A stretch of DNA of 64,000 nt from Dipteris shenzhenensis (lineage: Eukaryota): assembly GCA_047967505.1 (NCBI GenBank), contig CM106538.1; one strand, written 5' to 3'. This document shows positions 20,902-60,300 of the stretch, piece after piece. The notes beneath the pieces are model-generated. The model saw only the letters and a program-made list of their open reading frames with translations, did no database searches and had not been told where the DNA came from. Position numbers and translations under genes: made by a program. Within the stretch, counting starts at the first letter, position 1. Every line of letters starts with the position of its first letter.

Positions 20902-22490
20902 TGACAATGTGTGATTTCTTTATGTAGTTAAGTGACTATACAAGGACTACTTGTACTTGTTGAGAGTTCACGCTCAGCATCATGTGATCATGTGTGCATA
21001 GCACCATCACGTGATCATATGTGCATAGCACTAACCATAGAGTGCTATAAAGGAAAGGGTTAGATCCCCTAACCCTAACCCTAAATGGGTTTGTATATAT
21101 TCTATTTTTTCAACTAAATCTAGTGTACAGTTCGTCATTTGTGGTGTGCTCTCTAGTTGTGCCCTCTCTCCTCATCTCCACTCTTCTCCTCTCCCCTCTT
21201 CATATTTTGTCATGGTATCAGAGCATGGTTCTACCTTTTGTTGAGGCGCCATCCACCTTGTGAGAGTGAGATAGAGATTGTGAGATTGAGAGTTCTCGAG
21301 TGTTCTTGTGAGAGTTCACTTCCATAGAGAAATTTCCGTCCATCTAAAAGAATATTTCCATCAACTCCTTCGAGAGTTCTTTGAGAGTTATTCATTCCGT
21401 TCATAGTTCTACTCCGAGTGAGAGAGAGAGAGAGATAGGGAGAATTCTTCTTGAGAGATTCATTGTTTCTATGAGAGAGTTCTTTGGGATAGAGAGGTTC
21501 TTATCCTTGATGACTGAGAGAGAGAGAGGTTCTGGCCGGTTTTTAACTCCAACGACCCATCTAGCAGCATGCTTCGAAGAGTGGTAGTAGCCTCAACTTC
21601 TACAGTGACCTACAGACTCTACTAGTCTAGCCTCTACTCCACAACAGCAACACCTCCTAAGGTCTAAGCATAATGCTTAAGGCAGTCACGACAAAGCTCT
21701 CCAGCAAGCTCGGATCTGCACAACGAGCTGCTTAACAGCCACGGCTATGACTCACAATGAACTCCAGCAAGCCAACTAGTCTCTGTCCCTAGATCTACAC
21801 CGCCTAGCTCACGGACTCATGGGCAACGCTCCAAAACGTCAACGACCACCGATTACTGCTGCAAAGACTTTGCCTTATGTCACCTCCGCACCATGCCAAC
21901 GACAACCTGCATGCAAGCCTCACTTGCAATAGGCTCCAAGCTCCTGCAACGCTAAGGCTTAGCCAACGGACCGCCTCCATCAACGGCTTTCCTCAACTAC
22001 CTAGGTTCTACGACAAGGCTCCAACAATGTTCACAAGATTTCGGTTTTCCAAAAAGCGACACTTGGCAGGATAAGATAGCACCTAGGCTAGGTCTACAGT
22101 GTGCCACATGGCAACCTTATCTCCAAGTGCCACATCATCTGCCACGGTGGTAGCCATGTCATCATTACCACATCACCCTTGCCAGCTCAATAGGCCATGT
22201 CATCAAGACACATCATTCTACCATGTCATCAATGCCACATCATCAGCCTCGTTAGCATTGCCACATCATCTGCTGACATCATCAGTAGTGCCACCTCAGT
22301 TGTCCAATCAACACTGACATCTGTAGGCACACACAATGCTCTATAGTCATTGCATGTGTGCACTATTGTCTTGGAATTGAGTTCTGGAGAGATTCAGATA
22401 GCACATTCATGAGTCAGCTCAAGTATGTTGACAGTCTCCTGAAGAAGTTTCATATGGCAGATTGCAAGATTGCAGAGATGACCATGCACG
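20902..22490 (+). mobile_element. Internally deleted Ty1/copia: LTR, PBS, leader and RT fragment
   Basis: LTR end TTGTCA (21212), then PBS TGGTATCAGAGC (21213-21224, tRNA-iMet). Leader similar to 13150-14480, then abruptly the copia RT segment HYCLGIEFWRDSDSTFMSQLKYVDSLLKKFHMADCK. LTR start (TGACAA at 20902) is uncertain. Confidence 0.8.
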
Positions 22491-55400: not shown

Positions 55401-56575
55401 CATTGAAGAACCTACATGAAGTCCGTAGTTCTCTTGGCTTGTGTTCATACTATAGGTGCTTCATTCACTATTTTGCTAAGATAGCTTCACCCTTACATGC
55501 TTTGCAGAAGAAGGCAGTGGCTTTCCATTGGGGAAAGAAAGAAATTGCAGCATTCAATGAGCTGAAAGAAAAGCTAAGCTCTAATCCTGTTATCATTTTT
55601 CCGGACTTGCGAAAGCCTTTTGTTCTTCAATGCGATGCAAGCAGCAATAGTGTTGGTGGAGTGCTTATGCAGGAAGGCAGAGTGGTTGCATATGAGAGCA
55701 GGCTGCTCCGAGATGCTGAATACAACATGAATGTGTATGAGCAAGAATTGGTAGCTGTAATGCATGTTCTTACTGTGTGGAAGCACTATCTTTTAGGTGC
55801 TGATTTTTATGTGCAAACTAATCATCAATTGCTGCAATACTTTCTCACTCAGAGAAAGTTGTCAAAGAAGCACATGAGATGGGCAAACTTCCTTTCCATT
55901 TTTCATTTTCAGATTGTTCATGTGATTGGAAAGAAAAATGTAGTGGCTGATGCACTTTCCAGAAGGCCATGTACAGAAGCTATGTCCAAGAAACCACAGG
56001 TATCTGCAGTTACTATGAACTTGATGCCATGCTACAGATGATGCTTTTGCACGTATTTATGATCAGCTTATGGAGGATAATCGGCATGATCATTATACAC
56101 TCAAGGAGGGATTTATGATGATGCATGGAAAGCTGTGTGTAACGCAGCCATTGAGGCATAAAGTGCTCACTGAAAGTCATGCCCCACTGTATGCAGTGCA
56201 TAGGGGTATTGACTTTTATTGGCCTTCTGTACGGAAGGATGTTGAGGCTTATGTCAAGACATGCATCACTTGTCAAAAGGTGAAGTATGGCAGGCAAAAA
56301 CAGCCCGGTTTACTTCAGCCTTTGCCTATACCAGATAGACCATGACAGAGCATCGCTATGGATTTTGTTTTTTATCTCCCTCACACTCCTTCTGGTCATG
56401 ATGACCATAATTTGCAGATTTAGCAATATGGCTCACTTCATTCCAGTAAGGAAGAAGATTACAGCCGAGCAGATGGCAAAGGAATTCTTGAAGTCTATTT
56501 TCAAGTATCATTGGATGCCTGAGTCTATCGTGAGCGATAGAGATCCACGGATGACCAGCATGTTCTGGAGAGGTA
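52466..56575 (+). mobile_element. Ty3/gypsy gag-pol (disrupted, 3'-truncated in the integrase)
   Basis: Zinc knuckle CFLCKETSHRAADC; protease FFDSGDKANF..DVLLGMPW; RT MPLGLTNAPATF..FFDDI; RNase H LQCDAS..NVVADALSR; integrase YWP..CITCQ..SIVSDRD. Multiple stops and frameshifts; ~170-bp duplication at 53482/53651. Confidence 0.95.
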
Positions 56576-57063
56576 TTTGCTGGTCTATAACCATAGTTCA
56601 GCTCAAACAAACTAAACCCGGTAGAGGAATGTTTTCTATCATTGTAGGCAAACTTCAACAATGGCAACCACTTGTCCCACCTATGTTGCCTCAATGACAC
56701 ATATGCCCTCAGCATATCCTCTAAAGGCTGGTTGACTCTCTCCGTCTGACCATCTGTCTCAGGATGATCCCCACTACTCATTCCCAACTCAGTCCTTAGT
56801 GTCTCAAATACCGCTGTCCAAAAATGACCGGTAAATCTAACATCTCTGTCTGACACTATGGATCTAAACAATCCATGCAGACGAAATATACCTTTGTAAG
56901 ACTAGAATAAGTCCAATCATACAAATTTAGAAATTTTGTTGTTCTAAAGATCAAAAATCTACAAAGAAAAAAAAAAAAAAAAAGAGAAAATGAAAGAGAA
57001 GAAAAAAGAGGTAAACCAAAACTTTTAAGAAAAGCAAAAGGAAGACATACTAAGCAAGCAAAG

Positions 57064-57155
57064 CAACACTTATGTTGTCATCAGTGCCCAAGCATAAGCA
57101 GCTATACTGGGTTTCTAAAGACCCGCGGAGTCTCTTGGGCAAACCCAGTGCTTAC
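57064..57155 (-). ncRNA. Structured pseudoknotted RNA in the PLE 3' UTR; candidate self-cleaving ribozyme
   Basis: Interleaved perfect helices ACUGGGU/ACCCAGU and UGCCCAAG/CUUGGGCA, hairpins AGACUC/GGGUCU and CAACA/UGUUG, and CUGAUGA and GAAA motifs. Confidence 0.55.
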
Positions 57156-57271
57156 TAAAATACGTCAAATAAACAATAGAGAATGAAAACAAGAACTAAA
57201 GAAGAAACGAAGCAGGTGACTTAAGCAAAAATAAACAAGCAAGTCAAGAAACAAAAACTTCCGAAAAACTA

Positions 57272-57276
<5 letters not shown>

Positions 57277-57309
<33 letters not shown>
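57277..57309. repeat. (CT)n microsatellite inside the PLE 3' UTR
   Basis: Perfect run; reads (GA)n on the element's sense strand. Confidence 0.9.
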
Positions 57310-57314
<5 letters not shown>

Positions 57315-60300
57315 AAAACATAAAAAGTTAAATGGCACTTTACACTTATGTCTCGTTTCTGCAAAGAGGCAAAAATAAATTTCTAACTTAGAAAGCACAA
57401 GTATACTCAAACAAACTCTCTTTAGAAACTAAAAGAAAAACGGGCTATTCAGCTCCCCGCTTTTTGTTTTCAGCTTATGTTCAATCATTCTAAACAAGCC
57501 TAAGGCCGAAACAACATACAAAAAGGACTTCATATCTAAGAATGTGCAAACTTTTTTCATTATTTTCCTTGGATTATACCTCTTGTGTAATAGTAAAGTG
57601 ATCAAATTACTACATTGAGTGATAAAAGCCTCCTTAGTTGTACAAAGGCGGGAAAATCTATGGAATTGGGAAGAAATGACACCATATTTTGCCAAATCAG
57701 AAATGTTTGAGTCAATGTGAGGCATTTCCACTATATTCAGGTTGTTCACGTTTATCGTATATATCAACCTCTAATCCTATGGTAGATTGAGAAAGTCTAA
57801 GATCTAAGAAAATACAAGAATCCCCTCTTGAAGTGCAGTTCAGTTCACAAGAGACACGAGGATAGATTCCTTCTCCAAAAGCTCTAGCGTCTTTGTACAT
57901 AAAGTCTTGAAAGTTAGGAACATCTGGTACAAATAAATCATCTATAAAACGCCTAACTTGACTAAGCTTATGTAAAATGATAGGGCAGGTATTGATAGAA
58001 ATAAGACGTTGCATAAACTCAAATTCATAATTGAAAAGATAAAAGTTTGCTAAAAAGACGGCACAATTAGTGCCCATGGGGATTCCTATAACTTGTTGAA
58101 ACAAAGAATCACCTATTGTGATGTAAAGATTATCTAAAAGAAAATCTATCCAAGAGCAAACATCTTCTACACTTACTACCTTTGTGTATCTTTTCTTTTT
58201 AGAACCTATGTCATGATCTTTATTTTTTAGCCACAAAAAATCAAAGCATAAGGCTGTTTTCTCAACTTTTAGCACTTTGCATCTATCTTTGTCAAATCTC
58301 AGCTTGAAAACTTCAGCCACTAGCTTTTTAATTCTAAACTTCAGGTCTTCCAGCTCAATCTTTGTGTAAAGCGTCGTAAAATCATAGGTTTGAAGGAGAA
58401 TAGGAGACTCTTTTTCCTGAATGCTTCGAGAGGAATTAAAAAATTTTACAATAGGAATCACTCCTACAGAGTTATTTAAAATCCAGCTTGAGTTCGAGGG
58501 GACATCTGCCTCTTTTAATAAGTTTCTCCAAAGTTCATGGACACTAGGCAACATGGCTTTGAAGCAGTAGCTTAGCCATTTAGAGACATTCGTCAAAGTA
58601 GTCTCACAAGCAGCTGCAATAAATCTTGGCTTTTTTGGAGTTTTGTGAAACTTCCAAGCAGCACAAAGAAAAGGTATGCTTGGATTGCAAACAAACCCAG
58701 AAGACTTGCAAAAACTCTGATGTTTTGAGATCAAATCCTTCTGAGAAACTAAGGCAGGGGCATAAGTTTTGGCAGACGAGTTCACTTCTCTCAAAAGACA
58801 TTCTAAGTAAAACTTTTTGCAAATAAAAACAAAGTTATTGGAACATTTGTCCACATAAGAAATGACAAAATTCCTATGGAATTTTTGAAGAAGAGTTTCA
58901 TCTTCTTTAGAAAGATGGTTGTTTTTCTTTGAGCAAATAACCGAAGGGACTTCTTCTAGTTTCAAAGCAACTTTCTTCAAAATCTTCCCTTTCCATTCTG
59001 ATAAGATATTTTTAACTCCTAAACATTCTTCTAATTGCAAAACAAACTTTGAGATTCCCTTATCGATAGCTTTTAAAAGGCAAGACTCTTTAAAAGAGTA
59101 CAATCGAAATTTTGTGCCTTTCATGAAAAGATCTCTTAGGTTACTAGAAGGCAAAATTGAGGTATCAGTTGTGACTACATGTCCTAAATCAGCATCAATA
59201 AAGCTTTGGAATCTCTTACTTTTACAACAACAAGGTTCTTTAAGGATAGAAGATTTTGAATGCTCTGAAAGCCTTTTACCTATCTCTCCATAGTTGAAAG
59301 CCTTTTGTCCTAAAGTTTTTACATACTTCCAAGCTACTACTGGATGCTTCCAAATTCTTCTCACAAAATGAGGGAGAGAATCCATTACTTCAGGAGACTT
59401 CAAAATGGAGTTTAAGCCTATCTTGTCAAGTGAGGGAGAAGTAAAAATACAAATCAAGAGTTCCTTATTTAGATAGACTTCTTTGCTTTGAAATGAAGCT
59501 TTTACTTTTAAGAAGCGATCCAACGAAGTTTTAAGTTGTATATAATGGAGCTTATTTAGATTCAAATCCTCAAAAGAGAAGTTTTCCAAGGTGTATTGAA
59601 GTTTAAAAAGAACTTTGACATTATATTTTTCAAAAACTTTTATTGAAAAAAGACCCAGTGACATTAATCTATCTAGGTAGAGTAGTCTTCTTTTATAGTC
59701 TCGAGAAGCAAAAACTCTTGGAACTGAGGAAGTTAAAGGAACTAAAGGAGGAGGAAATGGAGGAAGAGGAAGTGAGGGAGGCAACTCACGAACTACATGT
59801 GAGATTGCAGGAGAGCTAGGACGAAATATATGTCTAATGAACAAATCCGCCACTTGCGGGGCACTAACAGACTCTCTAGTCGAAATAAAGTGAGCCATCT
59901 TGGTTAGACGATCAACCACCACAAGGATAGAATCATACCCTTCTTGTGTCGTAGGCAGCCCTACAATAAAGTCCGTGGAAATACTCTCCCACTTACTTAG
60001 TAGTATCTCCAAGGGCTGTAAAAGTCCGGGTGGCTTCACCCGCTCGGCCTTGCTTACCTAACATGAGAAACACCGTGTCACATATTCATGAATATGCTTT
60101 TTCATCTTTGGCCAAAAGAAATCTCGCTTCACGAGATCATATGTCTTCTCGACCCCTGGATGTCCCGCACACAGGCTACCATGGCACTGTCGAATGACTC
60201 TCTGCCTGAGATCATTCTGACTAGGTACTACAACCTTGCCATTTCTAACTAGCATACCATCCCTTATGGTATATCTTGCATAAGTTTCGCCTTTTTTGGA

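Follow-up and report, generated by a model that had tools for sequence, protein, structure and literature searches.

The window, by which we mean the whole 64,000-nucleotide stretch of DNA analysed here, contains a retroelement insertion that lies in the integrase reading frame of a Ty3/gypsy element; the frame is interrupted after 60057..59821 and resumes at 56901..56356 (Table 1). Among its named relatives, the reverse-transcriptase reading frame of the insertion comes closest to a hypothetical protein from the fern Ceratopteris richardii (66% identity). Longer relatives align with most of the query at 25 to 30% identity (E values from 1e-28 to 1e-46), the weakest of them being 22% identical. 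Pfam places a GIY-YIG domain near the N terminus in four of the five longer relatives scanned, with scores above the Pfam cutoff for P0019 and P0020 and below it for P0014 and P0012, and the stretch CCC...GHVVT of the window frame aligns by eye with the CxC...HGHVVTGD consensus of the clade with an N-terminal endonuclease. On the strength of the reverse-transcriptase relatives, the GIY-YIG domain of the longer ones and the CxC...GHVVT match, we assign the host, as judged from its protein sequence, to the Penelope-like elements without endonuclease, in a clade related to Naiad and Chlamys. Pfam gives no match to the window frame, GIY-YIG included, and the domain is absent from the close relatives P0002 and P0003 too; in the window copy, the missing GIY-YIG may reflect 5' truncation. 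A part of the reverse-transcriptase thumb lies in another frame (57429-57770), which shows that the window copy is frameshifted, and because of this frameshift it is probably dead as an element.

Table 1. Features of the retroelement insertion and of the candidate ribozyme motif near its 3' end (window coordinates)
Feature	Position	Strand	Basis or remark
Retroelement insertion, 2930 bp	56891..59820	minus (sense)	Splits Ty3/gypsy integrase reading frame
Target-site duplication TATATTTCGT, 10 bp, upstream copy	59821..59830	minus	Junction read
Target-site duplication TATATTTCGT, downstream copy	56881..56890	minus	Junction read
Reverse-transcriptase ORF of Penelope-like element, CxC motif, without endonuclease domain	57712..59820	minus	ORFs, relatives
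Whole candidate type-SGC-like hammerhead motif	57068..57149	minus	Sequence, descriptor, ViennaRNA folds, comparison with L001
Block S, stem III 5' strand ACUGGGU (positions 16.7-16.1)	57143..57149	minus	Pairs with 57106-57112
H17 = U	57142	minus	Position by analogy with hammerheads; predicted cut 57142/57141
Block S, stem I 5' strand UGCCCAAG	57134..57141	minus	8 bp with 57085-57092
Hairpin hp1, AGAC[UCCGCGG]GUCU = AGACUCCGCGGGUCU	57119..57133	minus	Minimum-energy folds
UUA, candidate stem II strand 11.3-11.1	57116..57118	minus	Possible pairs U57117-A57076 and U57118-A57075
Block G, GAAA (G12 A13 A14 A15.1)	57112..57115	minus	Read in sequence
Block G, stem III 3' strand ACCCAGU	57106..57112	minus	Pairs with ACUGGGU
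13-nt spacer AUAGCUGCUUAUG	57093..57105	minus	Read in sequence
Helix X 5' strand GCUUAUG	57093..57099	minus	Pairs with 57068-57074
Block C, stem I 3' strand CUUGGGCA	57085..57092	minus	Pairs with 57134-57141
Block C, CUGAUGA (C3-A9)	57078..57084	minus	Directly 3' of stem I 3' strand
CAA, candidate stem II strand 10.1-10.3	57075..57077	minus	Base comparison with L001
Helix X 3' strand CAUAAGU	57068..57074	minus	Overlaps the originally predicted hairpin at 57064-57077
Segment CAACAUAAGUGUUG (originally predicted CAACA/UGUUG hairpin)	57064..57077	minus	Read in sequence

Past the reading frame, the element carries a motif, present once in the window, in which the pieces of a hammerhead ribozyme follow one another in the order S (57149-57134), G (57118-57106) and C (57092-57075) on the minus strand. 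The string on which the original prediction rested is found there letter for letter. A descriptor script gives 7 bp for stem III and 8 bp for stem I, and several features of a hammerhead core are in place, namely, the pair A57112-U57143, an unpaired U57142 (that is, not G) and a stem I that starts directly from 57141, with A57112 serving both as the last A of GAAA and as the first base of ACCCAGU. The U at H17 makes the triplet at this site GUU. Hammerheads can cleave after GUU, which is less favourable than GUC. Stem II in the window amounts to only two pairs (A57076-U57117 and A57075-U57118), and positions 10.1 and 11.1 are unpaired (C-A); hammerheads usually have a G10.1-C11.1 pair, which is missing both in the window and in L001, a copy from a second family described below. 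The loop of hp1 contains the palindrome CCGCGG. For both families, the nested minimum-energy folds calculated with ViennaRNA contain helix X as well as stem III enclosing hp1.

The second family, which belongs to the same retroelement clade, came from metagenome contigs, which were scanned with an alignment of the closest proteins and yielded 80 loci with 37 to 65% protein identity. The protein of L001 is 48% identical to that of the window element, and BLASTN of the window 3' untranslated region against the 80 loci found no similarity over the motif, which was located in the second family by descriptor and by eye about 480 nt past the end of the reverse-transcriptase match. Its 5' half in L001 reads GGCUGAGU - C - UUCCC - hairpin GUUGC[UUCCGGAAUU]GCAGC - A - GAAA - CUCAGUU, and its 3' half, after a 30-nt spacer, reads CCCACUG - UA - GGGAG - CUGAUGA - AGU - CAGUGGG, with the pieces in the same order as in the window. 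U16.1 and G12 lie 28 nt apart in either family, while the distance from GAAA to the downstream CUGAUGA is 27 nt in the window and 50 nt in L001, and the stretch between stem III and helix X measures 6 nt and 30 nt, respectively. A hairpin of about 20 nt stands at the place of hp1 (15 to 21 nt over both families), and its loop again holds a palindrome, UUCCGGAA, although many second-family copies have lost it through CG-to-TG or CG-to-CA changes. Among 33 distinct aligned copies of this family, CUGANGA is intact in 24, GAAA in 27 and both in 22; H17 is C in all 33 and never G. The copies without an intact core show mostly transition changes, as in decayed copies. None of the partial BLAST matches to this family was a copy truncated at the cleavage site.

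Pairing between the two families was counted by comparing the coordinates of the helices and not from a MAFFT joint alignment (window plus 13 copies), which had the S-G half in register and misplaced helix X and the 3' strand of stem I. All seven pairs of stem III are kept between the window and L001 (five the same, one with a one-sided and one with a two-sided change), as are the first five pairs of stem I, the ones compared (three, one and one), and the seven of helix X (three, none and four). This adds up to 19 of 19 pairs kept across the two families compared: 11 are identical, a single side has changed in 2, and both sides have changed in 6. Stems I and III thus hold up as they had originally been drawn, with 12 of 12 compared pairs kept, and the pseudoknotted assembly that had been proposed is supported. 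Covariation shows between the two families compared, at 6 of 19 pairs changed on both sides, and is weak within the second family, where 91.9% of cells are paired and 14 are changed on both sides, a number reached by none of 500 shuffles but confounded by decayed and related copies. For stem II, the candidate strands read CAA/UUA (window) and AGU/GCA (L001). In L001, each of the two stem II pairs has both of its bases changed, 10.1/11.1 is A-A, and the stem II pairs compete with the base of hp1.

How often such an arrangement would arise by chance was estimated with a descriptor that required U16.1, an H17 other than G, 6 bp or more in stem III, 5 bp or more in stem I and a GAAA no further than 140 nt upstream of CUGANGA. 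When the window and the 80 loci were shuffled with their dinucleotides preserved (49.8 Mb from 30 rounds on both strands), it gave 13 matches, or 0.26 per Mb, and no match in the same 49.8 Mb when a third helix of at least 6 bp was also required. The real sequence (window plus 80 loci, both strands, 1.66 Mb) gave 20 sites, consisting of the window motif and 19 copies of one related family, and in 15 of these descriptor sites a third helix of 6 bp or more is present as well. By itself, CUGAUGA shows no enrichment in the window (9 observed against 15.2 expected), and the signal therefore lies in the combination of features. A chance origin of the motif is excluded by these numbers.

The motif is not recognized by the available models. 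Rfam at the gathering score matched no family in the window and none in 17 of the 80 loci, and a search of 56800-57400 at E values up to 10 returned no hammerhead family, the sole match being a spurious one to RgsA. The silence of the hammerhead models is expected if they encode the canonical orders. A covariance model built on the second family (R1) found no match in the whole window with default filters; with filters off, on a 2.5-kb stretch, the window motif was its best match, at a nonsignificant 8.3 bits (E 0.36).

The window's own family could be followed in contigs of four public runs under three organism labels, in which 23 to 36% of the sampled words of the element were present; only contigs were used, aligned to 56891-57430 at 80% likeness. 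They show the same S-G-C order in all four runs. Summed word depth peaks at 57071-57142 in each of the four, and 3 of the 32 pieces listed span the region from CUGAUGA through the S block. Among the variants listed, none falls in CUGAUGA, GAAA or stem I. Several of the others spare or improve the pairing: A57076>G, found in nearly all contigs, keeps the stem II pair as G-U; C57077>U, found in some, creates a new U-A pair at 10.1/11.1; U57068>C turns a G-U of helix X into G-C; G57067>A extends helix X by an extra U-A pair; and A57073>G retains a wobble in that helix. Helix X is thus broken by none of the variants listed, and two strengthen or extend it. Two variants go against the model, with G57107>A breaking one pair of stem III and G57124>A breaking an inner pair of hp1. 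Among the upstream-side loose ends listed, 5 of 16 lie at 57140-57143, adjoining the predicted cut, and word depth declines gradually there; we regard these ends as no more than a hint, since contigs cannot show the ends of RNAs. One contig, from run X3, joins 57077 back to 57128, giving a 52-nt tandem with CUGAUGA just before the GAAA block.

Since the second family and the contigs of all four runs share one order, and this order is not the canonical one, we take S-G-C to be a trait of the family and not a rearrangement private to the window copy, which had been one of the outcomes that would have refuted the original prediction. The claim that the core pieces stand out of canonical order is supported. 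The proposed stem II fared less well. In its place had been drawn a 5-bp hairpin of CAACA with UGUUG, which has no counterpart in the other family and which, being mutually exclusive with helix X, gives way to it in the ViennaRNA folds of both families. In each family, one 7-base strand of helix X precedes the stem I 3' strand and the other begins 3 nt past CUGAUGA. The run alleles G57067>A, G57067>C and U57068>C break the CAACA/UGUUG hairpin, and none of them breaks helix X. Both families, the run variants and the ViennaRNA folds therefore make helix X the better fit, and the hairpin was rejected.

The fold that we propose for the motif, and the cleavage that would follow from it, are modelled on published work on type-SGC ribozymes. 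Two hairpin domains would form first. In one of them, stem III (57149-57143/57112-57106) would close a loop that holds H17, the 5' strand of stem I, hp1 and GAA, and in the other, helix X (57099-57093/57074-57068) would close a loop that holds the 3' strand of stem I and CUGAUGA. The two loops would then pair with each other through stem I (5 to 8 bp) and a stem II of 2 to 3 bp, and this pairing would assemble the usual hammerhead core from CUGAUGA, GAAA and the cleavage site. Stems I, II, hp1 and X, joined with 0 to 2 nt between their strands, would probably form a four-way junction distal to stems I and II. In classic hammerheads, stems I and II are held together by loop-loop contacts; here, the four-way junction would keep them side by side. 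The cut is predicted, by analogy with hammerheads, between 57142 and 57141, at the site named in the original prediction; the counterpart in L001 would lie after C3797. Self-cleavage after U57142 would leave a 5' product consisting of the ORF RNA with a 2',3'-cyclic phosphate end and a 3' product of about 250 nt that begins at U57141. Such a reaction might trim read-through or tandem transcripts to unit length or release the 3' end. This biological role, which draws on general ideas about Penelope-like elements, is the weakest part of the proposal.

The sequence features of the motif, its conservation and its covariation are what we observed directly, and across two families the latter two support the hammerhead reading and the predicted site of cleavage. 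We put the probability at about 0.62 that the motif is a hammerhead ribozyme of type-SGC order and that the element with this ribozyme in its 3' untranslated region is a Penelope-like retroelement without endonuclease, from a clade related to Naiad and Chlamys.

A structured 3' untranslated element that descends from a hammerhead and no longer cleaves, such as a pseudoknotted recognition site for the reverse transcriptase, would keep the core motifs for folding or by descent, and we consider this unlikely. It would fit a stem II that is nearly absent and the unpaired 10.1/11.1 positions, and there is precedent in other retroelements for 3' untranslated structures bound by proteins, as in R2, which is reported to bind a pseudoknotted RNA (PMC12222951). 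Against it, the 13 core nucleotides are without a variant among those listed in the four runs, H17 is never G, and the core is identical in two families despite six two-sided pair changes, an identity that catalysis would demand and folding alone would not. It is a good deal less probable still that the hammerhead acts only between two RNAs or tandem copies, with the palindromic hp1 loops joining the molecules and the core spanning the dimer. In its favour, the hp1 loop holds a palindrome in both families (CCGCGG and UUCCGGAA), whose register is not accounted for by the hairpin, and the tandem contig of run X3 has its CUGAUGA just before the GAAA block. Small hammerheads linked to Penelope-like elements are also reported to cleave as dimers, an observation attributed to Lunse et al. 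in 2017. However, the palindrome is lost in many second-family copies, the tandem joint occurs in one contig only, and every strand is already present within one molecule in type-SGC order, in which ribozymes are described as cleaving in cis (PMC10085705).

The remaining readings are very improbable. The original prediction had also noted an HDV-like arrangement P1-P2-P3-P1'-P2'; such a ribozyme would cut 5' of P1, and the succession of stem III, stem I and hp1 does mimic P1, P2 and P3. Ruminski et al. reportedly described HDV-like ribozymes in non-LTR retrotransposons in 2011. The HDV-like reading was rejected, since no HDV-like family of Rfam matches 56800-57400 at E values up to 10, and inspection shows no bases after P1' that could pair with the loop (P1.1), no J4/2 cytosine, no G-U wobble at the base of P1 and an A in place of G at +1. 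Moreover, the P2' strand lies inside helix X, an arrangement that the HDV fold disallows, and the conserved CUGAUGA and GAAA play no part in that fold. Equally remote is a chance likeness or a rearrangement private to the window copy, for which the single copy in the window and the lack of an Rfam match could be cited; it is already refuted by the shuffle statistics and by the same order in the second family and in the contigs of the four runs.

Viral contigs searched for further families gave none. Contigs filed under prokaryotic genomes held 23 Penelope-like loci, and one of these (L096, 3218-3282) has a candidate in S-G-C order, with a stem III of 5 bp and a stem I of 6 bp about 580 nt past the stop of the reading frame; this candidate is within chance, since about 0.5 are expected in 178 kb at comparable, slightly stricter thresholds. 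Among the papers listed by full-text literature searches, judged by title and abstract, none described a retrotransposon or a eukaryotic genome as carrying a non-circularly permuted hammerhead.

Should the motif prove active, a class of ribozyme escapes those surveys of Penelope-like elements that rely on canonical descriptors or on the models of Rfam, and this class would bear on the reported absence of canonical hammerheads from Naiad and most Chlamys elements (PMC8557442). We offer as a tentative and rather doubtful extension that type-SGC-like hammerheads with a four-way distal junction may be the regular ribozyme of the endonuclease-less plant lineage, and maybe more widely of Naiad and Chlamys elements, with the palindromic hp1 loop coupling cleavage to dimerization of the RNA. 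If that were true, standard descriptors would have systematically missed the ribozymes of a very abundant group of eukaryotic retrotransposons. A natural variant of type-SGC in which a four-way junction replaces the short linker from stem I to stem II would also be useful for understanding how the permuted fold holds together, and the presence of canonical hammerheads in related lineages raises the question of how a non-circular permutation originated within one lineage of elements.

Canonical (type I) hammerheads of Penelope-like elements are said to have been described by Cervera and de la Pena in 2014 and by Lunse et al. in 2017. According to Craig et al. 2021, Penelope-like elements usually have hammerheads close to their 3' end (PMC8557442). 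The window motif resembles these type I hammerheads in the kind of host, in its location near the 3' end and in its core, and it differs from them in being permuted, whereas theirs have a contiguous CUGANGA, stem II and GAAA and no pseudoknot (PMC8557442). The same source describes PLE-X families from Chara and spike mosses, with BLAST matches in mosses, which lack the endonuclease like the window element and for which canonical hammerheads are reported (PMC8557442). It also reports eight unexplained cases called HHR_half_core in Naiad and Chlamys elements, with CUGANGA in the 3' untranslated region and GAAA 35 to 50 nt off "on either side"; they come from the same broad clade and the same untranslated region as our motif, and the Methods of the paper give them as strings only, with neither helices nor interpretation (PMC8557442). 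The HDV-like ribozymes of non-LTR retrotransposons resemble the window motif in that their first three helices follow a nested pseudoknot order and in that a retroelement hosts them; their defining P1.1 and catalytic C are not found in the window, and the bases conserved here are those of the hammerhead.

The nearest counterpart in structure is the type-SGC ribozyme of Eckert, Friedrich, Weinberg and Weinberg (Nucleic Acids Res 2023, PMC10085705), and the original claim of a new ribozyme topology has to be given up, since the S-G-C order has been in print since that year. In that work, the hammerhead is split into three blocks, namely the block with the cleavage site (S), block G, made up of GAAA plus the sides of stem II and stem III next to it, and block C, made up of CUGAnGA plus the sides of stem I and stem II next to it. 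The natural type-SGC ribozymes (the HRIMA-1 motif and its variants) comprise 583 sequences with two pseudoknots in the core, and they were found in metatranscriptomes, metagenomes and RefSeq by searches seeded on contigs with hairpin ribozymes; the main text names no retrotransposon or eukaryotic genome as host. Five representatives cut at the predicted site in vitro, a core mutant was inactive, and disruptive and compensatory mutants confirmed all four helices (PMC10085705). The window motif agrees with these ribozymes in the order of blocks, in all core nucleotides, in the pseudoknot of stems I and III and in an analogous cleavage site, which in our case is predicted. Their fourth helix, which ties together the other sides of stems I and II and reaches from just 5' of the stem I 3' strand to just 3' of block C, is the counterpart of helix X, and the variable stretch of 0 to 44 nt between stem III and this helix has its equivalent in the window and in L001. 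The linker from stem I to stem II is about 3 nt in type-SGC, in contrast to the hairpin of 15 to 21 nt that stands there in both of our families, although its authors accepted long linker insertions that fold into a hairpin (PMC10085705). Our motif further departs from theirs in a stem II of only 2 to 3 bp and in its host, which is a Penelope-like retroelement from the nuclear genome of a plant-like organism. The topology is thus already known, and what appears to be new is a plant retrotransposon as its host, together with the variation brought by hp1 and the short stem II.

The retroelement of the window, which is Penelope-like, interrupts the integrase reading frame of a Ty3/gypsy element and is accompanied by a target-site duplication of 10 bp. 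The split frame together with the duplication therefore shows that this is a clean dispersed insertion, made by an element that has no recognisable endonuclease. Within its 3' UTR, a (GA)n microsatellite lies upstream of the candidate hammerhead ribozyme and a long U tract lies downstream of it, and both were passed over as repeats in the comparison with contigs from public sequencing runs. Elsewhere, 2 of the 9 CTGATGA matches of the window fall within a series of imperfect, GAUGA/GAUGAC-rich repeats, and neither has a hammerhead context around it.

In the second family, which comprises metagenome loci of the same retroelement clade, a region of about 90 nt is conserved 3' of the ribozyme in most loci and is kept even in more distant partial copies. 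It holds a 7- to 8-bp hairpin, UGAUAGU/ACUAUCA, as well as a CUGUU/AACAG hairpin, and the window lacks a counterpart of the region. In two copies, 19 nt of the spacer that separates stem III from helix X (the helix bridging stems I and II) are duplicated, with the remaining parts of the motif intact, and the spacer therefore tolerates a change in length. In several loci the ribozyme region occurs twice, once after the ORF and once 2 to 4 kb farther upstream. Partial-tandem ("pseudo-LTR") arrangements are typical of Penelope-like elements, and the doubled region could reflect such an arrangement or separate insertions.

Penelope-like reverse transcriptases are also encoded on 23 contigs filed in genome bins of bacteria or archaea (L081-L103), and these contigs look like eukaryotic contamination of the bins. 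One of them, L096, filed under a gammaproteobacterial bin, is a distant element of the N-terminal GIY-YIG clade; the locus starts inside the ORF and so does not include its own N terminus. About 580 nt past the ORF stop, it has a candidate in the same order of cleavage site, GAAA and CUGAUGA (S-G-C), reading CGUAU-U-GAGGAU-AAGGCGUC-GAAA-UACG...AUCCUC-CUGAUGA, with no clear helix X and no clear stem II. This candidate is a single sequence and is compatible with a chance occurrence.

Coordinates of the features in the window and in related loci
Feature	Locus	Position	Strand
Integrase frame halves	window	56356-56901, 59821-60057	minus
(GA)n microsatellite	window	57275-57300	minus
U tract	window	56965-56990	minus
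GAUGA/GAUGAC-rich repeats	window	22150-22300	minus
Conserved downstream region	L001	3895-3990	
Same, distant partial copy	L010	1793-1871	
Same, distant partial copy	L032	522-575	
Same, distant partial copy	L050	7377-7448	
Copy with spacer duplication	L074	6626-6771	
Copy with spacer duplication	L028	2066-2211	
Doubled ribozyme region	L070	120-318, 3940-4137	
Doubled ribozyme region	L061	711-908, 4869-5064	
Doubled ribozyme region	L041		
Doubled ribozyme region	L074		
S-G-C-order candidate	L096	3218-3282	plus

In one of the sequencing runs (X3), a single contig with a depth of 130 has a joint at which the RNA strand leads from 57077 back to 57128, giving a 52-nt tandem. It may be a genuine variant or may have arisen in assembly. 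The joint places CUGAUGA-C immediately 5' of CCGCGGGUCUUUA-GAAA, and this order, with CUGAUGA before GAAA, is that of canonical hammerheads.
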